Numbered from the stretch's first letter, positions 489 through 41,573 are shown. The stretch: DNA of 44,564 nt from an uncultured Bacilli bacterium (GCA_944331915.1 CALVIR010000006.1:1-44564), one strand, 5' to 3'. Notes: a model not told the origin generated them from the letters alone. Program-made: numbers and translations.

Positions 489-952
489 CTACCCTTTAAA
501 AGGGTCAAAATCTTCAAGGGTCATCTGACAGCTTAATTGATCTTCTTTTAACTGATTTGCTATATATTCCTTTATTTTTTTTGTATTTTTTCCAACTGTA
601 TCTACATAATATCCTCTACACCAGAACTCTCTATTCCTATACTGATATCTCATATTTGCCCATTTACTATATATCATCAAGCTACTCTTTCCTTTTAGAA
701 ATCCCATGAATGATGACACACTATATTTTGGTGGTATTTCCAATAACATATGTATATGATCAGGACAAACCTCTGCTTCTATTATTGTTACCCCTTTCCA
801 TTCACATAATTGTCTTAATATTTGTCCTATTTCTAATCTTTTACTAGCATAAAAAACTTTTCTTCTATATTTTGGTGCAAATACTATGTGATATTTACAA
901 TTCACGTTGTATGTGCTAAACTTTTAATGTCATTTATTTTGATTTCTTTCAT
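489..952 (-). pseudogene. tnpA: IS200-family Y1 (HUH) transposase, frameshifted near 903-905
   Basis: CKYHIVFAPKYRR, HIH (HUH) and YIANQ motifs. The start MKEIKINDIKSLAHTT (ATG 952, AGGAGG RBS) is one base out of frame (ACG TG- AAT for the expected ACG TGG AAT). Could be a real lesion or a sequencing indel. Confidence 0.85.
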
Positions 953-962
953 TATAAATGTC

Positions 963-1022
963 CTCCTTCTAATATATATGGTTGCTTCTTGGCAGTCGCA
1001 ACACATATTATATTAGAAGGAG
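963..1022 (-). promoter_or_regulatory. RBS-sequestering hairpin in the tnpA leader
   Basis: CTCCTTCTAATATA...GTTGC / GCAAC...TATATTAGAAGGAG long inverted repeat covering the Shine-Dalgarno, as known for IS200 leaders. Confidence 0.75.
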
Positions 1023-1085
1023 TTTTTATTTTCAACTCATCGCTAAAGCTTTACTGAACCCCTAGACTATCTAGGGGTTTTCCCT

Positions 1086-1123
1086 AACAAAAAGCGAGAG
1101 CCATAAGGCTCTCTTCAGGGGGT
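1086..1123. repeat. Left att site of the integrated element (displaced original sRNA 3' end and terminator)
   Basis: AACAAAAAGCGAGAGCCATAAGGCTCTCTTCAGGGGGT is an imperfect direct repeat of 11638-11673. Identical core CTTCAGGGGGT at 1113-1123. Confidence 0.85.
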
Positions 1124-1229
1124 CAAATAAAATTAGTCATGCAAATTTATAAATATTATATAATTTCTTATAAAATAAGACTTTTATTACTATTCACTTT
1201 TAACTATACAATGACTATTTTTAATACTT

Positions 1230-1280
1230 TTGGTACCTAGCTGGGTACCTATTTTTTTTGTATGAACTTTTGGGTACCTA
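1230..1280 (+). repeat. Putative integrase arm-type sites (3 copies)
   Basis: TTGGTACCTA 1230-1239, TGGGTACCTA 1242-1251 and 1271-1280. The same motif occurs at the other end of the element. Confidence 0.75.
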
Positions 1281-1308
1281 AACAAATATTAATAATTTAT
1301 ATATTTTT

Positions 1309-2487
1309 TTAAATAAATTCTTGTTCTCTCTCTAATCTTTTTATTTCATATTCTACTTTGAAAATAATTTCGTTATTACATTTTTCAGCATGATCTTTTA
1401 TTGTTGTTGCTTTATATTCTCCATAACTATCAAAATTGTCAAAATAATATATTAACTCTATAAACACAACAAACAAGTCAAAATATATGCTGACAAAACT
1501 TGCGTAATACAAATTCATATATTTTTTTATAAATCTTGCTACTTTTTTATATAAATAAAACTGTTTCTCATTGACACTAAACCATTCTTCAGGTAGTAAA
1601 TGCCTTTCTTTATATGGAATATCTGGATTATTATATGTTGCTTCATATATGGCTCTCATCATTCTAGAAATAAATCCGCAAAACAAATCTGACATTCGTA
1701 TTCCTGGTGATGTTTTCGAATCCATTTGTTTACTATTTAAAAATCCTGCTTGTTTTGCACATCTAATAATCTTATTACTTCCCTCTTTATCAATTATTAA
1801 ATCAATTGATTTAATATTTAATTCTTTAGTTAATAAATTTAAACCTATATAAGTAGGCAAATAATTAAATTCAAAAGTGATTGATGCAGTATCAATCATA
1901 TTTAAAAACATAATAATCTCATTCATAGCATTATTTTCTAATTCTTTTAGCGGAATATTGCCATTAATTTTCATTTGATTTTTAAAGAAATCTATTAAAT
2001 CATTAAGTAGTTGATTATTTTTTTTCATTATATCATCTATAACATTTTGTGGCTTATAAACATTTATTGCTTTAGTAATGCTGTAGATAACTGCTTTTGT
2101 ATTTAAAATACACGAACTCTTAAATTTACATTTTGAAAGCAAATATTCAAGTTTATCTATTACAGATATATAATATATAATGTTATATTGATTTAATAAT
2201 TCAAAAAAATCACTATACATTTGGGTAGCATTATTGTTAAATGATGCTAAACCATATTGGTAATTTTTATGTTTAACAATATCACTTTTTAATTCTTCTA
2301 CTGTAAATAAACTTTTATATTTATTTTCGAACTTCTCATAGTGCTTAAAAATTTCATGTTTATTTATTTTTTCAAATCCTAATCCCGTACTAACATAAGA
2401 ATTAAAATAATTTGTGTCTTTTAAACTGTTTTTTGTAATATTTCTAGTATGAAAGGATTCATCGAAATAAAAATAACAATTTCTCAT
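1309..2487 (-). CDS. DUF3800-like protein (predicted RNase H-like fold)
   Basis: N-terminal YFYFDES, central IIDKE and C-terminal DSKTSPGIRMSDLFCG match the DUF3800 pattern (DES...DS...QxxD). Confidence 0.65.
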   Translation of the reverse strand: MRNCYFYFDESFHTRNITKNSLKDTNYFNSYVSTGLGFEKINKHEIFKHYEKFENKYKSLFTVEELKSDIVKHKNYQYGLASFNNNATQMYSDFFELLNQYNIIYYISVIDKLEYLLSKCKFKSSCILNTKAVIYSITKAINVYKPQNVIDDIMKKNNQLLNDLIDFFKNQMKINGNIPLKELENNAMNEIIMFLNMIDTASITFEFNYLPTYIGLNLLTKELNIKSIDLIIDKEGSNKIIRCAKQAGFLNSKQMDSKTSPGIRMSDLFCGFISRMMRAIYEATYNNPDIPYKERHLLPEEWFSVNEKQFYLYKKVARFIKKYMNLYYASFVSIYFDLFVVFIELIYYFDNFDSYGEYKATTIKDHAEKCNNEIIFKVEYEIKRLEREQEFI

Positions 2488-2497
2488 ACTTTACCAC

Positions 2498-3529
2498 CTA
2501 TTTCTTAAGTTTTATCGTAGTATAAACATTTTTCTTTGTTCTAGTTATAGCAGTATAATAATTTTTAACATTTAAAGTATTTCCAATTATAACTATATCA
2601 TTTTCTATTGTACTTCCTTTTGCTGATCTAATTGTATTTTTTGGTCCTAACCAATTATTCACTATGTCTGCAATTTTTCCACTTTTCTGACTATATAAAA
2701 GTGTTCTCTCTCCATCATCTAATTTATGGATATTTTCAATTTCAATTTTTTCCACCTTACTATTGTTATCAGTTCCATAAATTTGAATACCCAAATTATT
2801 CCTAATCCATTCACAATTAGCTTCTGGACATCTATAACTTTTATTTTGGGTACAATCTGCATCTAATGTTGCAAACCAATCTCCTCCACAATTAATATTT
2901 TGATTGTCATCACCTAATAAAATTAATTTTATATCTGTATTATATATAATCTTAGCAAAAACTTCTCTATATCCATTTAAATCTTGTGCTTCATCAATTA
3001 ATATATAAGAAAATCTAGAGCTTATTAAATCTAATATCTCACTTTCATAATTTTTTAATAAATATAGGGATAATTCCTCTCTAAGCTTATCTGTTAGTCT
3101 TAACTCTGTTTTTGCAAATATATATTTTATAGTTTTACTATTTGGAAAATTTCCCATCATGTGTAATTGTTCATTTGTAACAGTCAAGTCAATACCTGTT
3201 TCCTTTCCATGATTACAAATCTTGCCGTCTTCTTTTATGTGTATATTTAAAATACCAATTAAATGTTTTGGTAAATTTTTTGTATCAATAAATTTCACTT
3301 TAGAACCTGATGCAACCAATGGAATAACAGAACTAAATTTAGGAAGCAGGAAGCTTAAAAAAAACGAATCTATTGTTTTTGCCAAAAAGCCACTATTTTT
3401 TACATCTTTAACTACACTATTGGTAAAAGCCAAATATATTCCATTTTTGTTTTCTTTTAAGTATTTTTGAGAGTATGTTGTTTTGCCACCACCAGCAACA
3501 AATTTAATTACCTTTGAACTCATCTTCAA
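2498..3529 (-). CDS. gajB: Compact UvrD/SF1 helicase-like protein, Gabija B-like
   Basis: AGGGKTT Walker A, LAFTN, IDEAQD, LGDDNQNI, SYRCP, TIRSAKG, YTAITRTK motifs. Overlaps the upstream OLD-family gene. Start may be ATG 3523. Confidence 0.75.
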   Translation of the reverse strand: MKMSSKVIKFVAGGGKTTYSQKYLKENKNGIYLAFTNSVVKDVKNSGFLAKTIDSFFLSFLLPKFSSVIPLVASGSKVKFIDTKNLPKHLIGILNIHIKEDGKICNHGKETGIDLTVTNEQLHMMGNFPNSKTIKYIFAKTELRLTDKLREELSLYLLKNYESEILDLISSRFSYILIDEAQDLNGYREVFAKIIYNTDIKLILLGDDNQNINCGGDWFATLDADCTQNKSYRCPEANCEWIRNNLGIQIYGTDNNSKVEKIEIENIHKLDDGERTLLYSQKSGKIADIVNNWLGPKNTIRSAKGSTIENDIVIIGNTLNVKNYYTAITRTKKNVYTTIKLKK

Positions 3530-4958
3530 TATCCTTCATTATATGCCAATCCGAAAGATTAACATTATTTTCTATTAATTTTTCAACTATTTCTGTTTTT
3601 TTATGTTCTTTTGCTATAAAAATTGTTGAGTGCTTTTTATGTGGACATAACAAACTGGTATACTCATCTAAATATCCATTATTATATAAATCGGTTTCTA
3701 ATGTATTTTCTATTTCCAATAGTTTAATTCGTTTAGAGCCGCATAATTCTTTTAAGTGATTAAATCTTGGTGATGATTCTAAGTTATCAGATAACGCTTT
3801 ATCATTATCACTTACTACTATTATTTTTTTATCTAAAAAACTTGCTAATTCAATATATGGCTCAAACATAACACCTGAAACGTTCACTATAGTCCAATTT
3901 CTATTATTTTTGTATAAATAATTGTTTAATAATAATTCTTCTGTATATCCTTCAACCAATATAACATTATCAGAAAGTATTAGTTCACTTCTACCAGGAT
4001 GTAAAAAGATATTTAATTTTTGCTGATTTTTTGAACTTAATTCTGATAATCTTTTCCCAGAGATATCCAATAGTTCTTCCATTTTCAATTCATTAATTAC
4101 TACTGCAGAATGTGTTGTAGCAATAATCATCGTATTAGTAATTTCTCGTAATTCTCTAATAAGAGTTCTGATTAATGAAGGGTGTAAATGGTTTTCTATT
4201 TCATCAATTAGTATAATATTATATTTTTCACTCAAAGTATTAAGAATTATATTAGCAATACTTTTATATCCTGATCCAATTTTATAGTTATGAGCTTTAT
4301 CTCCCATACTATTATCAACAATATATACTCTTTCATTGGAAAACTTTGGGTCTGTTATTTCTATATCCAAATTTTGATTAAACTTACTACAAAAGGCTTG
4401 AAATTCATCAATTTTTTTACTCATTTCTTTTCTAATTGCTGCTTTAGATTCTTTTTTTAATTCTACATATTTTTCTTCTGAATCAACAAAATTTGAAATA
4501 CCTGTAGTTAAGTCATCAGTATATATATCTTCTATGCGCAATAATGGAATAGTATATAAATTAGGAATTTTAGGATCATCTCTTAAAATATCAAAATCTA
4601 TATTGCTTCCATTTAAATAATTAATTTCCTTTACATATCTATCACTTTGAGTTTTTCTAATTATAACCATAAATCCACATTTTTTTTCTAACTTTTCATC
4701 TTCAAAATTTAAACTAGGAATAGAATCTGGTTCTAATTCTATTTTAATGATAATGGGCAAATTATCATTACTGTCTTTAAAATCGCTTTTACTTATTCTG
4801 TAATAATCACTAGTAATAGTGGAAAATGCAATTTTTATTCCATCTAATAAATTTGTTTTCCCCGAATTATTTTTTCCCACTATTACAGTTAAATTTTTAT
4901 TAAATTCATATTTTCCTTCCAGATTTCTAAAATTTTTAAATTCAATACTTTTAATCAT
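3504..4958 (-). CDS. gajA: OLD-family ABC-ATPase/TOPRIM nuclease, Gabija A-like
   Basis: GKNNSGKT, IDEIENHLHP, TTHS and TOPRIM motifs LVEGYTE and SDND. Paired with the helicase. Confidence 0.8.
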   Translation of the reverse strand: MIKSIEFKNFRNLEGKYEFNKNLTVIVGKNNSGKTNLLDGIKIAFSTITSDYYRISKSDFKDSNDNLPIIIKIELEPDSIPSLNFEDEKLEKKCGFMVIIRKTQSDRYVKEINYLNGSNIDFDILRDDPKIPNLYTIPLLRIEDIYTDDLTTGISNFVDSEEKYVELKKESKAAIRKEMSKKIDEFQAFCSKFNQNLDIEITDPKFSNERVYIVDNSMGDKAHNYKIGSGYKSIANIILNTLSEKYNIILIDEIENHLHPSLIRTLIRELREITNTMIIATTHSAVVINELKMEELLDISGKRLSELSSKNQQKLNIFLHPGRSELILSDNVILVEGYTEELLLNNYLYKNNRNWTIVNVSGVMFEPYIELASFLDKKIIVVSDNDKALSDNLESSPRFNHLKELCGSKRIKLLEIENTLETDLYNNGYLDEYTSLLCPHKKHSTIFIAKEHKKTEIVEKLIENNVNLSDWHIMKDIEDEFKGN

Positions 4959-4990
4959 ACTGTACTACTCCTATCTTTTATATAAGAAAT

Positions 4991-5037
4991 AAAAAAACGC
5001 CAACACAAAAACTTATTAAATAATCCTGTACTAGCGC
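4991..5037 (-). terminator. G-U-rich hairpin plus U-tract between the RM genes and Gabija
   Basis: Minus strand GCGCUAGUACAGGA...UUUUGUGUUGGCGU followed by a U run. Confidence 0.5.
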
Positions 5038-5055
5038 TTATATATATTTTTATAA

Positions 5056-5892
5056 TCATTTTAATTTTATAAAAATTTGATTATCATAAAATCTCCATAG
5101 TGCTTTTTTGCTTGTAATAACATTTTCACTTGAAATAAGTCCATAATCTCTATACATTTTAGAGATTCCTCCTGAAAAATAATTTCGTCCTTTAATAAAG
5201 ATTGAAAAAAAGGCTTCATCTTCAAATAAGATTTTATACTTTTTTCTATCCTCAAGTAAATTTGCTATTTTTGATGGTACTGATAATATTCGAGCTCTTA
5301 CATCATTTTCCGTTATTTCTTTTTCTATAAATTCTTGATTAACAAATTGCCTATTATCTATATTTATATTTTCTGACTCTGCTGAAATTAATTCTTCTTC
5401 ATTGATATAGTCTTTTAATTCTTCTGGACTAAACTTAGGCTCAAAAGTGAAACCTATGCCATTTTCAATACAACTTCTTAGTAAAGTTTTTCCATCAACT
5501 AATGTTACCGGTTTTGACGGATCATTTGAGGCTTCGTTTATAACATCTTTTGTAAATTCAGAAGTGGTTATTAACATCCCTTTATGTCCGAATGGAATTA
5601 CTCCTTTTAACTCACGAAGTACATTAACATTAACTTTGTTTGTTTTATACCTTTTAGCCTGAATATAATATTCTATAGAGTCAGAATTACTAAAATCTCC
5701 AATTCCATTACGTAAAGCCTTTAAATCTATACCACCATCTTTACTCCTTTTTGTAATTTGAATTTCATCTAATCCCAATTTTCTTAAATATAATTTTAAA
5801 AAATCTTCAAATTCATATCCTGTAGCAAAACATTTATAAAATTCACTTAAATATTTTTCAATCTTGGCATCATCTAACTCATTTATTTTCAT
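5056..5892 (-). CDS. Mrr-like (Mrr_cat) PD-(D/E)xK endonuclease with an extra C-terminal domain
   Basis: FEDFL...LG, SKDGGID, IQAKRY, GMLITTSEFT and LVDG are hallmark Mrr catalytic motifs. Confidence 0.8.
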   Translation of the reverse strand: MKINELDDAKIEKYLSEFYKCFATGYEFEDFLKLYLRKLGLDEIQITKRSKDGGIDLKALRNGIGDFSNSDSIEYYIQAKRYKTNKVNVNVLRELKGVIPFGHKGMLITTSEFTKDVINEASNDPSKPVTLVDGKTLLRSCIENGIGFTFEPKFSPEELKDYINEEELISAESENINIDNRQFVNQEFIEKEITENDVRARILSVPSKIANLLEDRKKYKILFEDEAFFSIFIKGRNYFSGGISKMYRDYGLISSENVITSKKALWRFYDNQIFIKLK

Positions 5893-5907
5893 ATTTGATA
5901 CTCCTTA

Positions 5908-7686
5908 CTATACATATAGCTTTTTCCATTCTTTGATTACCTTAAAACAATTATTATTCCATTCTTGATAATTAGCTGACTCTTTTGCTTTAATATGAAT
6001 TTGCTTTATTAATTCAATAAAATTATTTATATTAAGATTTTTATCATATATAAAACTTGTAATATCCTTATATTGCTCAATTGTGAAAGGTATTACTGGA
6101 ACAGGTTTACCCATCCAACTTTCTTTGTTTAATATAAAAAATTGCCAGTTAGTTCTAACATTTATTGCTTTTGAAATAAATAATCCATATACATTTTTAT
6201 TTTTTTCTTTATCTATAAATTTTAAAACATGATCTATAACACTTGATCCTTCATGTTCCCATTGTTGAACACCGCTCATTAATGAAACTTCTGGAATTAA
6301 TACATCATCGCTAGTATATAACTCTATATCTGGTGTATTATTTTTTCCCGGAGCAAAACTTTTTGGAGTTAAATCTTCTTCTATATCAAAATTCCTTTTT
6401 ACAACTTTTTTTCCATTTATTGCCACTAATGATTTCCAGGTATTACATTCTAGCCATAATGCAGCCATATCTTCATTACCAGAAACAATATCATTAAATT
6501 TTTCAATTATTTCTTTTCTACTTTCAAATCCTTGTGATAAATATTTTACAAAAATATTTTCATTTAGACTTGTTATTTGCTTAATCAAATCTTCTTCAAA
6601 CAATTTTAATTCGCTTGATGTGTTTATTGATTGAACTTTAGAATATAGCTCATTTTCATTTAATTTTAACTCTAAAGAATATTTTTCGTTTACAATGTGT
6701 ATAGTTTTATTTAATAAATCAATTTTATCGATTATTAAATTTTTCCTTTCATCTTCATTTTCCCATGGCAAAATAATATTATCCGTATTTCCAAACCAAT
6801 CCATATATTCATCTAAGCTTGATGTTTCAATTGTATGATAATTGTATTTCTCATTTAATAACTCAACTTTTTTTCTAGAATGTTCTGCAATTCTAATTTT
6901 AGAGTAATTTCCTCTACCAGAAACATCAAATAAATTAGTAAATTCTAACGATCTACTAATTGCATCACCCATAGTAAATAAGGTTTTTATGTCTCCATCT
7001 TTTGGAAAATTAAAATTAGATTCTGCAATATTTCTAAATATTACTTCACATTTTATTCTATCGTTTTTGTTTTCTAATTGATTATATTTTTCTCTAAATT
7101 GTGTAATAGAATCTTGTAGCAAATTGTAATCTGAATTGTCGTCACATAAAAATAAATAGGCCAATTCATATCTATTTATGTATTCTAAATTAATTAATAA
7201 CTTTATTATTAAATTTAGTGGATAAACCCTTTTACCTTTTTCTATTTTTCTTCCAAAACCTGTGCATAATGAAGGAAAATTTATTTTTAATAATTGCTTT
7301 AGTAACATTTCTCCATCAAATCTATCAATTTCAATTAACTTTCCTGCTTTAGTAATTTTTATGTTACCACTAGTATCTACGTAACCAAAGCCAAAAAATT
7401 TATAGGTTGCTAAGTCGTTTCTTGCGTTACTTTCTGAATCGGCAGAAGCATCTAGAGTACCATTTAAATAATCAAAATATGTTATTCCATATATTGGTGA
7501 TGAAATATCCTCGTTTTTCTGCGCATTAAAGTAATATTCTCTGCGTATAGGATGTATTTTATATCCATTTCTACTAAGTTTACCATTAGTATAATTCCAA
7601 TTTTCATTTTCCAGATTTGCAAAACTTTTAAACCATTGCAAAGTTTTTATTATACTTCTTGGCTTTGTTCTCCATCCCCAACTCAT
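5908..7686 (-). CDS. AlwI-family type IIS restriction/nicking endonuclease
   Basis: FFGF...ITKAG, LKQLLK, PDIE...EVSLMSG..Q..HE catalytic region. Directly downstream of the methyltransferase. Confidence 0.75.
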   Translation of the reverse strand: MSWGWRTKPRSIIKTLQWFKSFANLENENWNYTNGKLSRNGYKIHPIRREYYFNAQKNEDISSPIYGITYFDYLNGTLDASADSESNARNDLATYKFFGFGYVDTSGNIKITKAGKLIEIDRFDGEMLLKQLLKINFPSLCTGFGRKIEKGKRVYPLNLIIKLLINLEYINRYELAYLFLCDDNSDYNLLQDSITQFREKYNQLENKNDRIKCEVIFRNIAESNFNFPKDGDIKTLFTMGDAISRSLEFTNLFDVSGRGNYSKIRIAEHSRKKVELLNEKYNYHTIETSSLDEYMDWFGNTDNIILPWENEDERKNLIIDKIDLLNKTIHIVNEKYSLELKLNENELYSKVQSINTSSELKLFEEDLIKQITSLNENIFVKYLSQGFESRKEIIEKFNDIVSGNEDMAALWLECNTWKSLVAINGKKVVKRNFDIEEDLTPKSFAPGKNNTPDIELYTSDDVLIPEVSLMSGVQQWEHEGSSVIDHVLKFIDKEKNKNVYGLFISKAINVRTNWQFFILNKESWMGKPVPVIPFTIEQYKDITSFIYDKNLNINNFIELIKQIHIKAKESANYQEWNNNCFKVIKEWKKLYV

Positions 7687-7697
7687 ACATTCATCTC

Positions 7698-8816
7698 CTA
7701 TATCTCATAATTAGTTATTAATAAATGTTCAACATCTTTGTCATTTCTATTCATAAAACTTACTAAATATCTTTTATCAAACTTTTTTATATAAAAACCA
7801 TTATCTTTATACAAATTATATATAAAATCTGTATTTTTTATTATTAACATAAATTTTGCCTTTGTATGTTTCAAATAATTAGCTAACCTTACTTGATCAT
7901 TTTTATCAAAGTCATTTTGTGCATATGTAGAAAATTCCGTATCATAAGGTGGATCTAAAAACATAAAATCTGTATCCGTTAATTTTATTTGATTACAAAA
8001 GCTTTCAAAATCTAGGCAATATAATTCTGTTTTCTTCATATAATTTCTTAATTCATCAGAAGTAACATATTCAATTTTTTTAGAAAAATCTTTTCTATTA
8101 TAACTTATACCCCCATATGGAACATTGAATTCTCCATTTGCATTATATCTAAACATTGACGCATAACAGTAATCTCTCACAAAATAAAATACTGCACAAT
8201 AAAATTCATCGCTTAATTTTAATTTGCTTTTATTATTATATAAATATCTAAAATACATATAATATGCACTTTTAAAAGCGCATTCTATATTATCCATAAT
8301 ATCTGAAATGTTCATCTTATTTCTTTGAATTTCAATTTTTTTCATTCTCTTAAACTTTGAAATTAAATTCTTTTTTATTTCTTTAATAAAATTATATAAA
8401 TTGATATCAAAATCATCTTTTAATAAATTATTTAACTCACTTGAGTGATTATCAATAAAACTATCAACTAATTTTTCTGCTTTTTTATCGTCTTTTTTTA
8501 TTTTATTATAGATTTTAGTTAATTCATTAGAATTATATTCAACCAATTCTTGTAATGATATCCAATTTTTGTTTATTTCATTTAAACTATCAATAAAATC
8601 TTTATTGTGTTCCTTTATTAATTTATATAATAGCATTAACTCAGTTGATTTATCGTTAATTAGTGAATTTTCACAGTTAATATTTAAATATACAGCACCA
8701 CCACCAACAAATGGTTCAATGTATCTTTTAAAGTTTGAAGGCAAATTCTTTAATATAATTGGTAACTCTTTTTCTTTACCACCAGCCCATTTAATAAATG
8801 GTTTCCTAGTTTTCAT
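7698..8816 (-). CDS. Dam/D12-class N6-adenine DNA methyltransferase
   Basis: [28 protein letters not shown] and FLDPPY motifs, plus a large helical insertion. Confidence 0.92.
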
Positions 8817-9050
8817 TTTTTACCTCCCTCTTGTAAATCTCTATACATGACTAATTATAACATAAAATTTTTTTTTATCATATTACTTAACTATACTTTT
8901 CTTTATAAAAGTAAAAACAAATTAGAAAATTCTACTAGTCCAAACATCTAGGGATTGGGATTTATCCCATAACAGGAAATTATAGCAGATTCTTTGGTGC
9001 TATACATTTCCATTGCTTGCTAATAACCTAAATTTATAAAAATGAACGTT

Positions 9051-9077
9051 AACTTTTTCCCCATTGGGGAAAAAGTT
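9051..9077. repeat. Perfect 13-bp inverted repeat
   Basis: AACTTTTTCCCCA-T-TGGGGAAAAAGTT in the divergent intergenic region of the element. Confidence 0.85.
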
Positions 9078-9284
9078 GTTAAGATTTTTAAAAATAAAAT
9101 GGGAAAAATTCGAAAATTTTTGGACTACTTTTAAGAAAATAAAATGAGATAATTTAGGGTATTGATTTGTCTACTTGCTATGTTAAAATATAGTAGAATA
9201 GCAAAAATTATAAAATTTAGTGAAACAAAGTAGATTTTGAGAAGTTCATGACTTCTCTTTTTTGCTTTATAGGAAGGAGCGTTT

Positions 9285-9554
9285 ATGGATAACTTTGTGA
9301 TGATTCCAACATGCTTAATGAAATCTAAGATACCTAGAAGTGCAATGTTACTTCTAGGTATTTTAAATTCTAATGCTATGCAATTAGGTTATGCTTATGG
9401 AACAAATAAGTATTATGCTAAACAATTAGGTTGTTCGACAAGAACTATCACTAACCTACTCAAATATTTAGCTGATAACAATTATATAACTATTATTAAT
9501 GGTAATAGCTTTAAACGAAGAATCTATATTAGAAATAAAGTTCTAATTACTTAG
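9285..9554 (+). CDS. Small winged-HTH protein resembling phage replication-initiator N-termini
   Basis: GYAYGTNKYYAKQLGCSTRTITNLLKYLADNNYI. AGGAAGGAG RBS. Confidence 0.7.
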   Translation: MDNFVMIPTCLMKSKIPRSAMLLLGILNSNAMQLGYAYGTNKYYAKQLGCSTRTITNLLKYLADNNYITIINGNSFKRRIYIRNKVLIT

Positions 9555-9589
9555 AAAATAATTTCTATATATGTAGAACTATATTTCTT
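9530..9589. repeat. Three palindromic iteron-like sites, 22-bp period (putative origin)
   Basis: TAGAA-N6-TTCT(A/T) at 9530, 9552 and 9574, followed by a nearly pure A/T tract. Confidence 0.6.
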
Positions 9590-9667
9590 ACATAATAAAT
9601 AAGTTAAATATATAAATTAAAAATATAATGATAAGATCTTGCAAGATGAGATCTTTGGGAGGTGTTT

Positions 9668-10117
9668 ATGAAAATTAATGATTATATTTTAGTGCATGGT
9701 AAAATAATTAACATTAAAAATAATGTTGATGATAAATATATTTGGTTTGACATAGTAAAAGATGAGTACTTTAAAGATAAGGATGGAAATTTAAAAAATT
9801 ATCCATCCTTTTTTAGTGCAAGAATATCAAAAACAATTGCAAATAAATATATCCTTGATATGAATATTGAAATTGTTGTAAAAGGTATTCCTAAAGGTTA
9901 TTTAGATAAAAATGGATATAGACAAAACTATATACATGCTACAGAAATTAATGGTGTAGAAACTAGCGAAGATATACTAAATCAAGTTATTAGTTATGAT
10001 ACCGATGGAATAATGTTATGGAATGGAAAAAGATGTGAGTCTATTCCTACTACTAAAGAAGAACAAGTAGAACTTCAGAAAATGATAAACGAAATATGTG
10101 GAAAGGATGATGAATAA
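9668..10117 (+). CDS. OB-fold/SSB-like protein
   Basis: VHGKI...FDI...YFKDKDG...FF...IVVKG pattern resembles SSB. GGAGGTG RBS. Confidence 0.5.
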   Translation: MKINDYILVHGKIINIKNNVDDKYIWFDIVKDEYFKDKDGNLKNYPSFFSARISKTIANKYILDMNIEIVVKGIPKGYLDKNGYRQNYIHATEINGVETSEDILNQVISYDTDGIMLWNGKRCESIPTTKEEQVELQKMINEICGKDDE

Positions 10118-10353
10118 TGAACGCTAAAGAAACATTAGAATTAATTTCTAAACAATGGTGTAATTTGGATGATTTAATGAAATTATCTAATCTTGGAATT
10201 AATAATGCTTTCAAGTTAAAGAAAGAAATAAAAACACTTTGTGAAGAAAAAGGCTACCTCCTTCCAAAAGGTTTATTACCTATGTGTGAAGTGGTAGCTT
10301 ATTTAAAAATAAATATTGATTACTTAAAAGAGATGAGTAATAACAAATCGTAA
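10117..10353 (+). CDS. Small protein, putative excisionase/DNA-binding
   Basis: 78 aa, coupled by TAATG to the previous gene and immediately upstream of the integrase. Function inferred from position. Confidence 0.45.
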   Translation: MNAKETLELISKQWCNLDDLMKLSNLGINNAFKLKKEIKTLCEEKGYLLPKGLLPMCEVVAYLKINIDYLKEMSNNKS

Positions 10354-10431
10354 ACTAGCAAGACATTTTATTTTGTTATACAATTGGCTCGCATGATTGA
10401 TTTATTTGTGTGGCCAGTAAAGGAGGATTAT

Positions 10432-11544
10432 ATGGCTGTTAAACAAGTAAGTAAAGAAGAAGCAACTAAAGATGGTCGCAGGTGGATATTTTATAATTAT
10501 TTATATTTAAGTGATGGAACTAGAAAAAAATATAAATCTAAAAAGTTTGCGACTAGAAATGAAGCTATTAAAGCCGAACAAAATTTTATGTCTAAAGTTG
10601 AGAAAAAAGAAATTAATGTTACAGACATGACTTTTAAAGATTTATATGAAGAATTTTACGCTTATAAATCAGATAAAGTCAAATCTACAACCATGAGAAC
10701 ATATCGTGAAAGAATTACTTCTTTAAAGATGCTAGAAAAAGTAAAAGTAAGAGATTTTAATATTACTCATTATTTAAAATGGCGTACTATGATTTCCAAT
10801 AAACCAGTTGCTGTTAAAACTAAAAATCATTATCATAAGTTTTTAAAAGAAATTCTAAATTATGGAACAAAGTGGCATGACTTTAATTTTACTTCTGTGT
10901 ATAACAGGATGGAAAAGTTTACTGATCCTAATGCTGTACCAAAAGAAATGGATTATTATACTTATGAAGAATTTAAAAAGTTTATTGCATGTGAAGATGA
11001 TTTAAAGTTTATTTGTGTATTTGAAATATTATATTATTGTGGTCTTCGTAGAGGAGAACTTAGAGGTCTTACTTGGGATAACATTGATTTTGAAGACAAG
11101 ACTTTATCTATCGTTAAAAATGTTGTGAATGAAAATGGTGATGGTGGTTATTGGAAGATTACTACTCCTAAAACTCGTACTTCTACTAGAACAATACCAA
11201 TGCCAGATATTTTAGTTAATCACTTAAAAGAATATAAAAAGCAAGTTTCTAAATATTATAACTTTAATCAGAAATGGTTTGTCGTTGGTGATGTTTCTCC
11301 CCTACACCCCGATGTTCTTAGAAAAAGAAAAAATAAAAATGCAATGAGTGCTGGTTTAAAACAAATTAGAATTCATGATTTTAGACATTCTTGTGCATCT
11401 TTACTCATTAATAATGGTGCTAATATTATGATTGTTGCTAAGTATTTAGGACATGCTAAAATTGATGAAACATTAAATACTTATGCTCATTTATTTAAAA
11501 ATAAAATGGATGATATTGTTAATATGATAAATCATTTAAAATAG
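10432..11544 (+). CDS. int: Tyrosine recombinase/integrase
   Basis: GLRRGE (R), TPKT (K), HDFRH, LGH, TY catalytic residues and an N-terminal arm-binding region. AGGAGG RBS before ATG 10432. Confidence 0.95.
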   Translation: MAVKQVSKEEATKDGRRWIFYNYLYLSDGTRKKYKSKKFATRNEAIKAEQNFMSKVEKKEINVTDMTFKDLYEEFYAYKSDKVKSTTMRTYRERITSLKMLEKVKVRDFNITHYLKWRTMISNKPVAVKTKNHYHKFLKEILNYGTKWHDFNFTSVYNRMEKFTDPNAVPKEMDYYTYEEFKKFIACEDDLKFICVFEILYYCGLRRGELRGLTWDNIDFEDKTLSIVKNVVNENGDGGYWKITTPKTRTSTRTIPMPDILVNHLKEYKKQVSKYYNFNQKWFVVGDVSPLHPDVLRKRKNKNAMSAGLKQIRIHDFRHSCASLLINNGANIMIVAKYLGHAKIDETLNTYAHLFKNKMDDIVNMINHLK

Positions 11545-11580
11545 TGATTTATAAACAAAAAAAAGACTTTTTCAAGTCTC

Positions 11581-11602
11581 TGGGTACCTAATTGGGTACC
11601 TA
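11581..11602 (+). repeat. Putative integrase arm-type sites (2 copies)
   Basis: TGGGTACCTA at 11581 and 11593, with the same 12-bp period as 1230/1242. Confidence 0.75.
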
Positions 11603-11637
11603 AAATATATTTTAAAGGCTACAAACCCTTTGATATC

Positions 11638-11673
11638 AACAAAAAGTGGAGCCTTGCGGCTCCTTCAGGGGGT
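11638..11673. repeat. Right att site with element-supplied terminator
   Basis: AACAAAAAGTGGAGCCTTGCGGCTCCTTCAGGGGGT. Core at 11663-11673. Confidence 0.85.
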
Positions 11674-11742
11674 TCGGTTGAATATAAATCCACACTTAGA
11701 TCGTGGACTATATCACCATGATAAGTAAAATACTTACCATGT
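11640..11742 (-). ncRNA. Unassigned ~100-nt structured small RNA (integration target)
   Basis: Near-consensus promoter upstream, two hairpins (11717-11741, 11680-11714), single-stranded C-rich tract, GCAA-loop terminator with U-tract. No obvious protein-coding role. Confidence 0.65.
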
Positions 11743-11748
11743 ACTTAA

Positions 11749-11777
11749 ATCATATCGAATTTTTTTCTTATTGTCAA
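11749..11777 (-). promoter_or_regulatory. Sigma-A promoter of the small RNA
   Basis: TTGACA (11777-11772), 17-bp spacer, TATGAT (11754-11749). Confidence 0.8.
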
Positions 11778-11809
11778 TTTGATTTTTAAAATTTACAAAT
11801 ATTTTACAA

Positions 11810-13804
11810 CTAACTATGTATAATTGTATTAATAAGTTTAAGTTTTAAAGCATCATTTTCCCCATTTTTTAAGTACTCATATGAATCTTCTCTAGCTTGT
11901 AATAATATTTTATAATCTGCTTTTAAATCTGCAATCTTAAAAGTCATATCACCACTTTGTTTTGTTCCAAACAAATCTCCATGGCCTCTTAATTTAAAGT
12001 CTTCTTCACTAATAACAAAACCATCATCACTTTGTTCCATTATCTTTAACCGTTTTGTATCATTATCACTAATTAAAATACAAGTTGATTGTAAACTACT
12101 TCTTCCTACTCTTCCCCTTAATTGATGTAGCGTAGATAAACCAAAGCGTTCGGCATCAAAGATAACCATCATTGTCGCATTAGGAACATCAACTCCTACC
12201 TCAACTACAGTAGTACTAATTAGAATTTGAATTTTATTTTGTAAAAACTCACCCATAATTAAATCTTTAGCAGCACTAGCCATCTTACCATGAACTAAAT
12301 CTATTTTATATTTACTACCAAAAGCTAAATTCATTTTCTCTTTTAAATCATTAACACTAGTTAAATCACTATTATCACTATCTTCAATTAAAGGAGCAAT
12401 AACATAAATCTGATGATTATCTTGTAATTCTTTATACATAAGCTCTAAAACATCTTTTATTTCTTTGGTACCTTTAACAATGGTTTTAATCTTTTTTCTT
12501 CCCTTAGGTCGTGTCTTAATAGTTGATATATCCATATCTCCATATATTGTTAAAGCATAAGTTCTAGGAATTGGTGTTGCACTCATATAAAGAATATCAG
12601 GCTTATGACCTTTATTTTGCAAGTTAGCTCTTTGATTGACCCCGAAACGATGTTGTTCATCAGTAATAACTAAACCAAGATTATGGTATTTTACATCTTC
12701 TTGAATTAACGCATGCGTACCAACAATCATATTAATAGAACCATCCTCTAGTTCTTTATAGATTAAATCTTTTTCTTTTTTCGAGGTAGATCCTGTTAAT
12801 AAAGCAATATCAATATTATAATCAGCAAAGAAACTTTTTAAATTATTATAATGTTGGGTTGCTAAAATCTCTGTTGGAGCCATTAAAGCACTTTGATAAC
12901 CACTTAAATAATTAGCATACATCGCAATAAAAGAAACAATAGTCTTACCACTACCAACATCACCTTGTAAAAGTCTATTCATTCTATTTTCACTTTCTAA
13001 GTCTTTAATAATATTATCAGTAGCAGTTAATTGATCTTTTGTTAATTCAAAAGGTAGTTTACTAATAAATTCTGTTATCTTTTCATGATCAATTTCTCTT
13101 TTAATTCCCCCATTAGCTTTTTTGTTTTCTTCTTTTAAATAGTTAATCTTAAACATAAACTCAAATAATTCTTCATACTTTAATCTAATCATCGCTTCTT
13201 TAAGTTTCTCTTTACTAGGGGGATTATGAACAATATTTAAAGCTAATCTTTTATTAGAGAAATTGTATTTATCTTGATAATATTTAGGAATACTATCGCT
13301 AATTTCTTTCGCTTGACTAAGTAAAGCCATATTTATATATAAAGCCATATTTTTATTAGTAATACCATTAGTCAAATGATAAACAGGCTCTATCTTTACT
13401 TTATTAGATAAAGGTTCTAACTTTAATTCTGAAGCTGTGATAACGTTTTTCTTTTTATCATATTTACCAATAACCGTAATTCCCGTTCCCACAATTAAAT
13501 GACTTTTCAAAAAGGCTCGATTAAAAATAGACACACCAACTACCCCACTATTAGTTACTAAACGAAAGTTCATCTTATTAAGTCCCGCTTTAAATCTTAC
13601 TAGAATTGGACTACTTTCTATTTTCCCATCTATAATAATATGATCCCCATCATTAGTTTCTTGCAAATTACCTCTTACTAAAAATTCATATCTAAAAGGA
13701 TAATGTGTCACTAAGTCATCAACAGTATTAATACCCATCTTAGATAACAAAGTTAAAGTTCTTGGACCTACTCCTTTAATATCTTTTAATGCCACTAGTA
13801 CCAC
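11810..13804 (-). CDS. recG: ATP-dependent DNA helicase RecG
   Basis: MNRLLQGDVGSGKT, DEQHRFG, MSATPIPRT, QLRGRVGR, EEDFKLRG.GD.FG.KQSG. Confidence 0.97.
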   Translation of the reverse strand: MVLVALKDIKGVGPRTLTLLSKMGINTVDDLVTHYPFRYEFLVRGNLQETNDGDHIIIDGKIESSPILVRFKAGLNKMNFRLVTNSGVVGVSIFNRAFLKSHLIVGTGITVIGKYDKKKNVITASELKLEPLSNKVKIEPVYHLTNGITNKNMALYINMALLSQAKEISDSIPKYYQDKYNFSNKRLALNIVHNPPSKEKLKEAMIRLKYEELFEFMFKINYLKEENKKANGGIKREIDHEKITEFISKLPFELTKDQLTATDNIIKDLESENRMNRLLQGDVGSGKTIVSFIAMYANYLSGYQSALMAPTEILATQHYNNLKSFFADYNIDIALLTGSTSKKEKDLIYKELEDGSINMIVGTHALIQEDVKYHNLGLVITDEQHRFGVNQRANLQNKGHKPDILYMSATPIPRTYALTIYGDMDISTIKTRPKGRKKIKTIVKGTKEIKDVLELMYKELQDNHQIYVIAPLIEDSDNSDLTSVNDLKEKMNLAFGSKYKIDLVHGKMASAAKDLIMGEFLQNKIQILISTTVVEVGVDVPNATMMVIFDAERFGLSTLHQLRGRVGRSSLQSTCILISDNDTKRLKIMEQSDDGFVISEEDFKLRGHGDLFGTKQSGDMTFKIADLKADYKILLQAREDSYEYLKNGENDALKLKLINTIIHS

Positions 13805-14661: not shown

Positions 14662-15198
14662 TTATATTTTACCTTCTTTAATATATTCCTCTATCTTTAA
14701 TGTTATAGCATTATCAAATGTTTTATCATTAATTTCTCCATCCCAATTATTGGCATATTTTTGAAATATATCCTTATCTACATCTATGGGAATTTTATTT
14801 ATAATGTTATCTTTATATAGTTCATAAAAGATTGAACTTTTATAGACAGCCATTGTTTTAACAATTTCTCCTGTCATTTCATCTTTAGTAAATATATTTA
14901 TCTTTTTATCTTTTAAATTAGAGAAATAAACAGTTCCGCTATCAAGCTTTCTTAAATAAAAGTCTTTAGCTTTATAATCGACGCCATCTATCTTAAAAAT
15001 AGGATTATCACTTAACTTAGCAAAATTAAGATCAAAACTTTTACCTCTTAATTCATTAGTAGCTTTATTATATAACTTAGTTCTTGTCTTTTCATCTTCA
15101 AAAATTAAAGCACCATTAAGATCAAAAATATGAGTTCCTTTAGAAATGACATTCTTTGTTATTATCTTATTATCACCAGTATCTTTTAGATTATTCAT
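14662..15198 (-). CDS. Hypothetical protein
   Basis: 178-aa ORF with RBS, 12 bp downstream of the HEXXH protein gene. Confidence 0.7.
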   Translation of the reverse strand: MNNLKDTGDNKIITKNVISKGTHIFDLNGALIFEDEKTRTKLYNKATNELRGKSFDLNFAKLSDNPIFKIDGVDYKAKDFYLRKLDSGTVYFSNLKDKKINIFTKDEMTGEIVKTMAVYKSSIFYELYKDNIINKIPIDVDKDIFQKYANNWDGEINDKTFDNAITLKIEEYIKEGKI

Positions 15199-15210
15199 TA
15201 CCTATCACCT

Positions 15211-16524
15211 CTATTCAACCGCAATTTTACCAGTTTCTATCGCTTCTATAAAATCATATAAATCAGTATAATGAATACCACTATTTTTATCATAATAATT
15301 TATTTTGATTCCTTGAAGGGCCGCTGGCTCTTGATAATAAATACGACTTAATTCAGTAAATATTTCATAGTCAAGATCTTTAATTGCTCCCCAATCTTCT
15401 TCATTAACAATGCGATCACTATAAGTTATTTTAGAAGTTTCACTACCATTAAGAGATACTCTTCCTTCTTCTCCATTACCTAATTCTTTTAAGTAATTAA
15501 CAATTTGCGGATAAACTTTTTGCCATGCTCCTTGGAGAGCAAATCTTTCTCCATCATCATTTGTTAAAGAAATGTCAAAAGCATGTCCTAATTCGTGGAT
15601 AAGCGCTCCAACTATGTACGAATCAGGAGTAATTATTTTTCCATTAAGAGGATCATAATTATTTAAAATAGAATAGGTATTAATAGCTGTACCACGAACA
15701 CCAGTATCTAAATGGACAGAAAGTCCTGCCCAATAATAATTACCATCAGTTTTAGAGTCTACTAAGCAAATAACAGCATTACCATCTTTATCTTTATTAA
15801 CTACAGAAAGGGCATTTTGTTTAAAAAACTCTGTCATATCTTGATTAATAATATCTTGGACTGTATTGACATAACTGATAGTTCCATCTACGTATCTCAT
15901 TAGCTCATCATCACTATAACTAGAATAATTTATCACCCCATTTACCTCTTCAACTTTACTAAGACTAACTACATAAGAAAAGCCATTATCTCCTACATAT
16001 TTAGCATATAAACCATTATAATCATATTCACCAGTAAACCAACCATCAGCAGCACTAACCGTACCATATTCTAGAGAAAATCCTTCTGCTTTAAGCTTAT
16101 CATAGATTGTTTGAACCAATTCTATATTCATATTGCTTTTCTCTGCTATTAAAGCAATTTTTACTGTATCTTTAAGTTCTTCAACAGCCATTCCAAAAAT
16201 ATTATCACCTGAATTACATTTTTCTAATATTTCAAGAAGCGCTTCTAACTTTTCAACATCAGTAGTGATATTTTCATACTCATTGGTATCAGTCTTTTCT
16301 GTCAAACCAAATTTCTCTAAAATAACTAGAAAAGGTAAAAATAATATTTTATTTAAAAAATCTCTAGCATTATCTCCAACTTCTTCCGTTAAATCTAAAT
16401 TAATAGTATCAACACTATTATCACTAGAAATCTTAGTAATATTAAAATCCTGCTTATTATTAGTAAAACTTTTCAAAGTATCAAAGTCTTTAATATTAAC
16501 GTTAATATTTTTTATCTTCTCCAT
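15211..16524 (-). CDS. Putative zinc metallopeptidase (HEXXH)
   Basis: ALIHELGHAFD and a downstream EIFTE third-ligand-like motif. Confidence 0.55.
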   Translation of the reverse strand: MEKIKNINVNIKDFDTLKSFTNNKQDFNITKISSDNSVDTINLDLTEEVGDNARDFLNKILFLPFLVILEKFGLTEKTDTNEYENITTDVEKLEALLEILEKCNSGDNIFGMAVEELKDTVKIALIAEKSNMNIELVQTIYDKLKAEGFSLEYGTVSAADGWFTGEYDYNGLYAKYVGDNGFSYVVSLSKVEEVNGVINYSSYSDDELMRYVDGTISYVNTVQDIINQDMTEFFKQNALSVVNKDKDGNAVICLVDSKTDGNYYWAGLSVHLDTGVRGTAINTYSILNNYDPLNGKIITPDSYIVGALIHELGHAFDISLTNDDGERFALQGAWQKVYPQIVNYLKELGNGEEGRVSLNGSETSKITYSDRIVNEEDWGAIKDLDYEIFTELSRIYYQEPAALQGIKINYYDKNSGIHYTDLYDFIEAIETGKIAVE

Positions 16525-30400: not shown

Positions 30401-30967
30401 ATTATTTTTAGCATTAACCGCTCCATTTATAAGCGATTCTATATATTGATAATAATTACTTGCCCTAATAACATTTTTCTGATTAGTAGTCAAATTACTT
30501 TTACCTTCCGCTAAATCTTGATACCACCATAAAGCTATTTGCGTTAAGTAATCATCATAAGCATCGTTTCCTGTTAATGATTTATTAGGATATCCATTCT
30601 GTAACAAATAAACATATCCAGCATCTAATGGAGTAGCATTTTTAGTTATTGTTCTAGGACTATCATTACTAGGCCAACCCTTATCTTTTTCAAGACAATA
30701 AACGGTATATCTAAATCCCGTAGAATCAGTCGCATAATATGGAACCAAAGCAATAATTTCATCACCATACAAATTATCAAAAAGACTAACTCTATCTGTC
30801 AAAATATTTCCCATTCCTGTCGTTAAAGTATCAGGAAGCTCTGTAGGAGCCCCATATGTAATTAATGGCCCTTTAACTAAAACAACAAAGAGAATAAAGA
30901 ATAATGCTCCCAAAATAGCATTTTTAACAACATTTTTATCTATCACTGCTACATTACTATATCTCAT
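27485..30967 (-). CDS. Sortase-anchored thioester-domain adhesin with SpaA/CnaB-type repeats
   Basis: YCLE, TQIALWW (TQXA-type), multiple KxD...GA...GxY..ExxAPxGY...N repeats, VPNTS + TM + basic tail. Confidence 0.88.
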   Translation of the reverse strand: MRYSNVAVIDKNVVKNAILGALFFILFVVLVKGPLITYGAPTELPDTLTTGMGNILTDRVSLFDNLYGDEIIALVPYYATDSTGFRYTVYCLEKDKGWPSNDSPRTITKNATPLDAGYVYLLQNGYPNKSLTGNDAYDDYLTQIALWWYQDLAEGKSNLTTNQKNVIRASNYYQYIESLINGAVNAKNNPVTINPSFSISSSDFKLSSDHKYLITDNITVNSNVSFQNYKVSVNNSAVEILDSNNNVIGSNTINSGQPFKLRVDLAKISSPITVNISVVVNYTEYEAYRYDPPAEDASNMQQAISGTLAATPKEKTISSSVTMPTGSLTVNKVDSNGNSPLAGASIEIVRVATNTVVDSFTTTTTSHMTSNLLPGEYKIRETSAPNGYYINNAETTVVIDSSNLNISRTLTNSRFEAYIRKVDSDTGSVVSGAVLRILDNNNATVATITTGTDYVAIPNLSEGTYKVVEISAPSGYLVSDEVKTFTIDKDHTRVTVDYADKKNEILIEKRDASDNNFVEGATLRLVNTDTNSTVDEWVTGREAHRITGLAVGNYKVIEIAPPSGYSLSSEELTFTITNTMTENLTITFYNSKNQITINKIDSETKEAVVGAKMEIVDSSGRVIESFTSSKSPYTISKLDPGTYYVRETEAPSGYVKSEEPVSFVVTNETTNINVTFENKKNELRLGKVDSDGKFMAGAELKLTNSAGEPVAEFTSGNEAHVIRGLASGTYKLEETKAPAGYIRNTHIETITIKDTDSVITYNMPNEKINITLNKIDAETKMPLAGIRYELLNSEKEVIGNYVTSDTPLTLNILEEGTYYLRETMTIDGYILDTSLHEFTVDASNYNYEITLENKPTEVSLGKIDAGTGEYISGATLKLSRVDGTMEPITFVTTDSPHIIKRLAAGTYQLEEIEAPAGYVLSNSKITFELEETGEMQTVNIVNDVLKVVINNKRVEIEAEEGFKFRIETRDGEEVTEFTTTNEKYVSDPLNNGDYVLRQLEAKEGLVVNNNPLYFSITDDNNVTVVNFVNDYTKVMISKKDMANSEELPGAQLIIYNDKGEIVEEWTSTDTPHYIERLPIGYYTLKEINAPDGYVVNTATVDFRVLETGDIQTETMFNSKPIDVPNTSSNSNAVYIIGGLIIMVGGTLVIISRRKSSVLSR

Positions 30968-35421: not shown

Positions 35422-35487
35422 TTATTTGTTTAAAACTACCCCCCCCCAGTTAACACATTGTGAACTGAATACTCTTGCCATTTTCAT
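35422..35487 (-). CDS. Putative 21-aa leader peptide containing a G9 tract
   Basis: AGGAAAGAAGGT then ATG AAA ATG GCA...AAC TGG GGG GGG GTA GTT TTA AAC AAA TAA. C9 at 35439-35447 on the plus strand. Confidence 0.45.
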   Translation of the reverse strand: MKMARVFSSQCVNWGGVVLNK

Positions 35488-41542: not shown

Positions 41543-41573
41543 AAAGAACTGTTAGAAAAAATCAACAGTTCTT
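41543..41573. terminator. Bidirectional terminator between convergent genes
   Basis: AAGAACTGTT...AACAGTTCTT inverted repeat. Confidence 0.65.

Follow-up and report, generated by a model that had tools for sequence, protein, structure and literature searches.

A predicted small RNA gene next to recG as an apparent integration hot spot for defence islands and mobilisable elements in uncultured Bacilli

Results

The predicted small RNA gene and its surroundings

The DNA analysed here, hereafter the window, is a stretch of 44,564 nucleotides (nt) from an uncultured Bacilli bacterium (GCA_944331915.1 CALVIR010000006.1:1-44564), with a G+C content of about 27%. Its minus strand carries recG (11810..13804, identified by profile search and RecG scan), the conserved upstream neighbour of a predicted small RNA of about 105 nt that we call sRNA1 (11638..11742). 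This is followed by an integrated island of about 10.5 kb (1124..11662), which lies between two copies of an attachment (att) core and is recognised from these core repeats, an integrase gene, arm repeats and cargo. A sequence-only reading of the stretch had proposed that a promoter of the form TTGACA-17-TATGAT drives a unit of about 100 nt with two hairpins, an unpaired tract and a terminator, that this unit is a conserved and possibly undescribed non-coding RNA, and that it is used as an integration site whose terminator is rebuilt by the incoming element. It had also suggested a cmscan search against Rfam and the collection of homologues downstream of recG, both of which were carried out.

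The two proposed promoter hexamers are present on the minus strand, TTGACA lying 66 nt downstream of the recG stop codon, and form a sigma-70-type promoter (11749..11777; -35 TTGACA at 11777-11772, a 17-nt spacer and -10 TATGAT at 11754-11749) that matches 11 of 12 consensus positions and ranks first among the 10 promoter-like sites found in a scan of 1.8 kb (10800-12600). The 105-nt unit, defined by its fold, its covariance-model score (126.5 bits with the model R1 described below) and covariation, has a predicted energy of -34.4 kcal/mol (z = -4.3, with none of 200 shuffles as good). The predicted fold contains a 5' hairpin of 11 bp (11741-11717), a second hairpin (11714-11681), an unpaired tract ending in AACCGAACCCCCUGAAG (11680-11664), and the terminator GGAGCC-GCAA-GGCUCC (11648..11663), which from its fold and from comparison with relatives appears to be an island-borne replacement, followed by a U-tract (11647-11638). 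The architecture that had been proposed is recovered in the computed fold, and every feature of that reading was found on the minus strand at the positions given for it. The single-stranded tract, AUUCAACC(G/A)AACCCCCUGAAG, is roughly 20 nt long, C-rich and almost invariant, and the alignment of relatives delimits an almost invariant block of 21 nt, AUUCAACCGAACCCCCUGAAG (11663..11683, minus strand), whose last 11 nt, at the 3' end, are the att core. The window scan detected no terminator-like site between recG and the small RNA, so that recG transcripts probably also end at the terminator hairpin of the RNA, and such a shared terminator would put extra pressure on incoming elements to carry a working one.

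Distribution and conservation in relatives

Relatives were obtained from one RecG-based scan of a genome collection, which returned 19 loci (L001 to L019), so that all distribution counts refer to recG-anchored loci. They are labelled uncultured Bacilli or Tenericutes, Candidatus Onthousia and Erysipelotrichaceae, with RecG identities of 58-87%, except for L019, which belongs to the Acidobacteriota and has a RecG identity of 38%; the contig of L007 ends inside recG and this locus is not assessable. The covariance model R1, built from the aligned region downstream of recG, matched the RNA in all 17 assessable Bacilli-type loci, with scores of 36-126 bits, and gave no match in L019. On the window it recognised a single full copy and a 3' remnant at 1086-1176 (a partial match of 28 bits), even with the filters off. 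The small RNA directly follows recG in 16 of the 17 loci. In the remaining one, L004, an IS66-family transposase gene (L004:4673-6166) is inserted between recG and the RNA, and because promoter and RNA are intact despite this intervening gene, the RNA unit appears to be independent of recG.

In close relatives the RNA body is 96% identical, as against 81-82% for recG DNA and 74-81% for the spacer between recG and the RNA, and the -35 and -10 hexamers with their 17-nt spacing are kept in 16 of 16 aligned relatives, the sequence of the promoter spacer being variable. The hairpin sequences of L014, L015, L016 and L018 are largely replaced with their pairing kept, and these four RNAs fold independently into two hairpins, tract and terminator (z of -4.9 to -7.0). 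When the alignment is fitted to the model, pairing holds in 98.2% of 433 cells and two-sided changes occur at 14 of 27 pairs, values reached by none of 500 shuffles. Controls in which the partners were slid by 1-3 columns gave at most 48% paired cells and at most 7 two-sided pairs, and a plain MAFFT alignment showed two-sided changes in 12 of the 27 pairs. The block AUUCAACCGAACCCCCUGAAG is identical in the window and in 13 of 16 aligned relatives, and differs in the most distant ones, L015, L018 and L016, only by a G to A change and one inserted A; the tract AUUCAACC(G/A)AACCCCCUGAAG stays almost invariant even at RecG identities of 58-66%. It is moreover predicted to be unpaired in seven of seven homologues, whatever terminator follows (mean unpaired probability 0.67-0.84, and 0.87-0.97 for the C5 run). 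These comparisons give good support to a small RNA under selection, in which both hairpins covary and the tract is nearly invariant, and they bear out the proposal of a conserved non-coding RNA of this lineage.

No Rfam 15 family reached its gathering score at the small-RNA site, including RsaE, signal recognition particle (SRP) RNA, RNase P RNA, 6S RNA and riboswitches, and gathering-threshold scans of the window and five loci gave nothing credible for the small RNA. Permissive Rfam searches, run with E up to 10 on the RNA copies of the window, L014 and L015, returned weak matches of at most 23.5 bits to unrelated families, none of which recurred between the copies, and ARAGORN predicted 0 transfer RNA (tRNA) or transfer-messenger RNA (tmRNA) genes in the window. 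These searches agree with the earlier view that the RNA is possibly undescribed and does not look like a tRNA, tmRNA, SRP or RNase P RNA. Comparison of the RNA region by blastn with a phage and a plasmid collection produced short chance matches only, namely two Flavobacterium phage records (16% query cover) and six Klebsiella plasmids (27% query cover), respectively. Nothing on this RNA or on the RNA biology of the lineage was found in the literature searched, subscription journals being outside its scope; the publications on 'Onthousia' concern, by their titles and abstract openings, taxonomy or microbiome composition.

The att core and the two island junctions

The window contains exactly two copies of the 11-bp core ACCCCCTGAAG, both on the minus strand and still only two when one mismatch is allowed, against a chance expectation of 0.13; none of 100 shuffles reached two matches. 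The RNA-proximal copy (11663..11673) is found at the 3' end of the almost invariant block, in the unpaired tract where the sequence-only reading had placed it, and the distal copy (1113..1123) repeats it exactly. At this distal junction lies what appears to be the displaced 3' end of the resident RNA (1086..1113, minus strand; a partial R1 match), composed of the stem-loop GAGAGCC-UUAU-GGCUCUC (1113-1096) and a U-tract, which over 38 nt shares 94.7% identity with the 3' ends of L001, L003 and L006. The displaced and the element-borne terminators (1096-1113 and 11648-11663) are, as had been claimed, different stem-loops each provided with a U-tract.

A further motif, GGTACCTA, is present in five copies in the window, in one orientation and all at the island ends, against 0.59 expected. 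Two copies are located between the integrase gene and the att core (11583..11602, plus strand) and three inside the distal island end (1232..1280, plus strand), an arrangement that, judged by motif position, is the layout of arm-type integrase sites. The tyrosine integrase gene itself (10384..11544, plus strand; Pfam Phage_integrase, E = 3.3e-28) is convergent with the RNA, probably starts at the ATG at 10432 and ends 119 nt from the core. Residues R206, H315-x-x-R318, H341 and Y351 are invariant in all five aligned integrases, those of the window and of four related loci, and this set of R, HxxR, H and Y is what we take to be the catalytic signature. An 11-bp direct repeat, an integrase, arm repeats and a displaced terminator are all present, as expected from the proposal of an integration site with a rebuilt terminator, and the RNA gene is almost certainly a site at which integrating elements replace the terminator.

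Directly outside the displaced terminator is an IS200/IS605-family insertion sequence (489-1079, minus strand; Y1 transposase at 489-905). Its 5' structured end (966-1079, minus strand) gave the only Rfam hit in the window, STnc490 (64.5 bits), which has been linked to IS200 (PMC4513863). This hairpin end is situated 7 nt past the last T (1086) of the U-tract of the displaced terminator and had no match in the plasmid collection. The region is that of a proteobacterial-type IS200 leader/antisense RNA, here in a low-GC Bacilli genome.

Terminators, repeats and islands in relatives

Relatives whose contig continues share the same sequence up to ...ACCCCCUGAAG (...CUGAA in L016) and are divergent thereafter. 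Counting the displaced one of the window, ten different stem-loops follow the core, all GC-rich and then continued by U-tracts. Besides GGAGCC-GCAA-GGCUCC and the displaced GAGAGCC-UUAU-GGCUCUC of the window, they are GGAGCC-GAAA-GGCUCC (L008, L009, L014), GGAGCC-UUAU-GGCUCC (L001, L003, L006), GACGGAC-UUAU-GUCCGUC (L011), GAGAGC-GAAA-GCUCUC (L005, L015), GGCUACC-GAAA-GGUAGCC (L017), GUUCCCUC-GAAA-GAGGGAAC (L002, L004, L012), GAGACGC-UAC-GGCGUCUC (L010) and UCCCAGC-UUCUC-GGCUGGGA (L016). Paired direct repeats of at least five kinds come after the stem-loops: a GGTACC-type in the window, L011 and L016, TTAGGTGCT in L008 and L014, CTACCCATCA in L005 and L009, TAGATACCAA in L002, L004 and L012, and TTAGGTGG in L010. 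The terminator variants go together with differing arm repeats, integrases, mobilisable elements and defence cargo.

Integrases convergent with the RNA and 40-51% identical to that of the window are encoded in 7 of the 19 loci: in L005, L009, L012 and L014 they are complete, in L004 and L016 the contig end truncates them, and L002 retains a fragment of 79 amino acids (aa). A DDE transposase adjoins this fragment (L002:8263-9584), so that the L002 island is a decaying one. With the IS66-family transposase of L004 and the DDE transposase of L002, the hot spot also bears secondary insertions. Three loci, L009, L012 and L014, have the integrase followed by a Mob_Pre relaxase and an AAA_25 ATPase, the module set of integrative mobilisable elements. 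Two others keep arm-like repeats and show no integrase: L010, with a type I restriction-modification system, and L011, with a methyltransferase and a TdeIII endonuclease; the L011 remnant is 88% identical to the island of the window over 1396 nt, the integrase region being deleted.

No integrase or arm repeats were found next to the GGAGCC-UUAU-GGCUCC terminator of L001, L003 and L006, and since the displaced terminator of the window matches these integrase-less loci, this type of 3' end is taken as the resident one, or else as the oldest that can be seen. The genes downstream differ between the three, with a zeta toxin, AAA_21/RloB and TOTE in L001, unknown open reading frames (ORFs) in L003 and AAA_21 in L006, and an ABC-F gene is shared beyond the variable genes by L003, L006 and L011. 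The L001 region (L001:8214-13616), where no integrase is seen, encodes a zeta-toxin-domain protein, an AAA_21 and RloB pair and a TOTE-system primase-helicase; defence genes gather at this site even without a visible integrase. A second copy of the core was not found within 6 kb downstream in any related locus, so that both junctions are seen in the window only. From the sequence comparisons taken as a whole, the RNA locus is, by all appearances, a hot spot for integration in the manner of tRNA and tmRNA targets.

Cargo of the island

The element of the window is a 10.5-kb defence island. Upstream of the integrase are a gene for a small helix-turn-helix protein, a candidate regulator or excisionase (9285..9554, plus strand; HTH_36), and two ORFs at 9662-10353 for which the family search found no family. 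The remaining genes, assigned by profile matches, are on the minus strand. They comprise a type II restriction-modification pair (5908..8816) made of a D12-class methyltransferase (7698-8816) and an AlwI-like endonuclease (5908-7686), a Mrr-like restriction endonuclease (5056..5892), a Gabija-like pair (2498..4958) and, as the last cargo gene, a DUF3800 protein (1309..2487). In the Gabija-like pair, the OLD-family ATPase (3504-4958) contains a TOPRIM domain and the UvrD-like helicase (2498-3529) is short; their best PADLOC matches are GajA (2.6e-30) and GajB (5.4e-10), respectively.

A second candidate small RNA

In L001, another candidate small RNA was noticed on the strand opposite to recG and some 1.3 kb upstream of it (L001:4630-4740, minus strand of the locus). 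It occupies the same place in L002, L004, L005, L007-L012 and L017, has diverged copies in L014 (~5023-5176) and L018 (~5802-5882), and is absent from the window. Its promoter is of the form TTGACA-17-TATTAT, and the unit comprises two hairpins, a stretch CCAACCCCUUUUUAUUCUUUU that is unpaired and invariant, and a long terminator. It has no Rfam match, a permissive scan (E up to 10) of its region also giving nothing credible. The apex of its terminator, CUUCAGGGGGU, complements the att core of the first RNA exactly, and L001 contains the complementary 11-mer twice where 0.00 is expected by chance. In L014 and L018, UCAGGGGG is kept while the stem of this terminator covaries.

Other features of the window

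Some features of the window stand apart from the RNA locus. A run of nine G (~35443-35451, minus strand) lies about 180 nt upstream of a 610-aa DUF6273 ORF (33432-35264, minus strand); in a genome of 27% G+C, it could be a slippage-prone, phase-variable tract. A RhuM-family gene is split over two ORFs (35740-36670, plus strand; profile positions 1-70 and 126-248) and followed by a Fic-domain protein (36851-37843), and an AAA_14/DUF4143 ATPase is likewise split over two ORFs (41573-42525, minus strand); the split genes may mark a second variable or decaying region. Finally, a surface protein of 1160 aa (27485-30967, minus strand), which has an LPXTG anchor, a thioester domain and nine repeats of the SpaA type, suggests an adhesin of this gut bacterium.

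Discussion

The features of the two junctions are consistent with a simple mechanism. Arm-binding tyrosine integrases would recombine within the last 11 nt of the tract and the element would insert immediately 3' of it, carrying the resident terminator to the far junction (1096-1113), while its own GC-rich hairpin and U-tract would take over termination of the RNA. As the element brings its own terminator, the RNA, and probably recG transcription, would still terminate correctly. We regard it as very probable that the minus-strand segment 11742-11638 is a chromosomal gene for a real, functional non-coding RNA, and as quite probable that this holds jointly with its role as an integration site with terminator replacement. 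We infer that the RNA is expressed, and from its own promoter.

How the RNA would act is a separate matter. A base-pairing regulator working through the C-rich tract is the leading guess, a role that, in our estimate, falls a little short of probable. The small RNA would then act in trans, its accessible C-rich tract pairing with G-rich sequences that resemble ribosome-binding sites; the sequence-only reading had likewise proposed that this tract could pair with Shine-Dalgarno sequences. The closest candidate in the window is CGGUUGAAUA (15198-15225, minus strand), which over 10 nt is perfectly complementary to the tract's 5' half. It just precedes the ribosome-binding site of an ORF of 178 aa and unknown function (14662-15198), a gene absent from L001. 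This match upstream of the ORF at 15198 is the best one of the tract; it is not significant against shuffled seeds and was treated as chance. No G5 run of the window lies at a start site.

Several observations weigh against this interpretation of the RNA and of its function. All relatives are metagenome-assembled genomes, and the promoter-like sites in 10800-12600 are no more numerous than chance would give (10 as against 10.8 in shuffles), so that the case for the promoter rests on its conservation. The alignment with 98.2% pairing was fitted to the model and leans towards it, and the lineages that contribute independently to the covariation number about four or five (the main cluster, L014, L015/L016 and L018); with so few lineages it constitutes good support and not statistical proof. 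The tract was compared with 47 start regions in the window, and 68 of 100 shuffled seeds gave a duplex as good as its best one or better. A scan of all loci for 8-mer complements returned AT-rich chance words and, as the one recurrent match, the terminator of the second RNA. CCCCCU is a poor match to the canonical GGAGG ribosome-binding site, and the C5 run fits G5 better. The invariant tract, at 21 nt, is longer than typical small-RNA seeds and could point to a protein partner or to a conserved RNA partner; its 3' 11 nt are also island-borne, and the uniformity of these 11 nt could come in part from repeated integration. Lastly, the full-length duplexes of the two RNAs were no better than shuffles in five of five genomes (54-171 of 200 shuffles as good), and the complementary 11-mer, which sits at the tip of the second RNA's terminator, is for the most part self-paired. 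On these two grounds we do not count the complementarity between the two RNAs as evidence.

One alternative is that the RNA is real and instead binds or titrates a protein or a conserved cellular RNA, the 21-nt tract being the binding platform. Given a target scan no better than shuffles, the better fit of the C5 run to G5 than to GGAGG and the long tract, such a role is a serious rival to base-pairing with messengers, and one that we nevertheless hold to be rather unlikely. It draws on an invariant tract far longer than usual seeds, on the fact that neither the start-region nor the 8-mer scan yielded an mRNA target, and on the exact complement of the 11-nt core at the terminator tip of the second RNA. 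On the other side, these data point to no nameable protein partner or motif, and the duplex energies with the second RNA are not better than those of shuffles; moreover, the lack of targets is weak evidence because the target search covered 44 kb of genome. A more ambitious reading, in which the RNA would be an indispensable regulator across the lineage with the tract as its hub and the RNA upstream of recG as its partner, is in our view unlikely. If it were true, indispensability would account for the use of this RNA by at least four diverged lineages of integrases, as well as by mobilisable elements and by defence islands, the RNA would fill the role of tRNA and tmRNA genes in these reduced-genome Bacilli, and the two RNAs would be a new partnered pair of C-rich and G-rich riboregulators, of which the second has its own C-rich tract.

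Other explanations carry less weight still. The unit could mainly be the 3' untranslated region and terminator of recG, the RNA arising by processing or read-through and the promoter being incidental. This would fit the lack of a visible terminator between the recG stop (11810) and the RNA, as well as the position of the RNA directly after recG in 16 of 17 relatives. It is quite improbable, since the -35 and -10 hexamers and their 17-nt spacing are kept in all aligned relatives where the spacer drifts, since the L004 transposase separates recG from an intact promoter and RNA, and since a plain terminator region needs neither covarying hairpins nor an invariant tract. A cis-acting leader (attenuator or riboswitch) of a former downstream gene, uncoupled from it by the islands, would have the same layout of promoter, structured RNA and terminator as transcription-attenuation leaders; we give it very little weight, because the next genes differ at every locus with no conserved downstream gene among them, no antiterminator alternative is apparent in the predicted folds, and no Rfam riboswitch or leader matches. 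Just as little can be said for the idea that the conservation is a by-product of repeated overwriting of the att site by core-carrying islands rather than of selection on the RNA. Islands do carry the core ACCCCCTGAAG and everything 3' of it, which are replaced at each integration, but overwriting leaves the invariant AUUCAACC(G/A)A on the chromosomal side, the covarying hairpins and the conserved promoter unexplained. The least credible alternative is a tiny peptide or type I toxin. By eye, an ATG in hairpin 1 opens a frame of 10 mostly hydrophobic codons in this hairpin and just after it; however, the frame lacks a ribosome-binding site, it is shifted in L001, L003, L004 and L005 by an indel of 1 nt in the loop of the hairpin, and L015 and L018 keep the hairpin with a wholly different sequence. 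The peptide-coding reading was rejected on account of these frame-shifting indels and of the non-conservation.

With a functional non-coding RNA as the preferred interpretation, the small RNA represents a new family and its gene, in an uncultured lineage, a new hot spot for integration into RNA genes, both of kinds that are themselves known. Earlier work describes islands that split an RNA gene and restore it, the displaced fragment marking the far end (PMC4383910). Like Islander-type tRNA and tmRNA islands, the present one has a tyrosine integrase at one junction, an identity block at both ends, integration at the 3' part of a small RNA gene, a target regenerated by the island and a displaced 3' fragment at the far end. 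It differs in that the target is neither tRNA nor tmRNA and in what is restored: tRNA-gene (tDNA) islands restore the target's own sequence, whereas here only a generic terminator hairpin of free sequence, in ten variants, is supplied. The small RNA genes ryeB of Salmonella and ryeE of Escherichia coli are phage integration targets (PMC3603311) and share with our locus the use of a small-RNA gene as a site-specific target and hot spot; phylum, RNA and integrases are different, and the RNA reported here is undescribed and hosts defence islands and mobilisable elements, not prophages. As to the RNA itself, Firmicute small RNAs of Staphylococcus and Bacillus are presented in PMC2790875 as having a 5' hairpin, an unpaired C-rich motif that binds the Shine-Dalgarno sequence, and a terminator. 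Our RNA shares the plan of RsaE/RoxS and other Rsa RNAs: its length is near 100 nt, a hairpin forms its 5' end, its C-run is unpaired and lies where conservation is highest, and it closes with an intrinsic terminator. In contrast to them, our RNA has no Rfam Rsa match even at E up to 10, and where Rsa RNAs have repeated UCCC motifs it has one C5 run within a 21-nt invariant tract. Finally, L009, L012 and L014 resemble Firmicute integrative mobilisable elements: beside the RNA they have an integrase and a Mob_Pre relaxase together with an AAA_25 ATPase of the replication type. The island of the window differs in bearing only defence cargo, without a visible relaxase, and the target of integration is a new one.

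Taken as a whole, the analysis adds a well-supported, uncatalogued small-RNA family to an uncultured gut lineage and indicates that integrases exploit non-tRNA small RNAs outside enterobacteria as well. The natural swaps of terminator point to a constraint on the RNA body and tract only. In these genomes the RNA gene can serve as a marker for defence islands and mobilisable elements, and the pairs of integrase and att site are candidate site-specific tools for organisms that carry this RNA.

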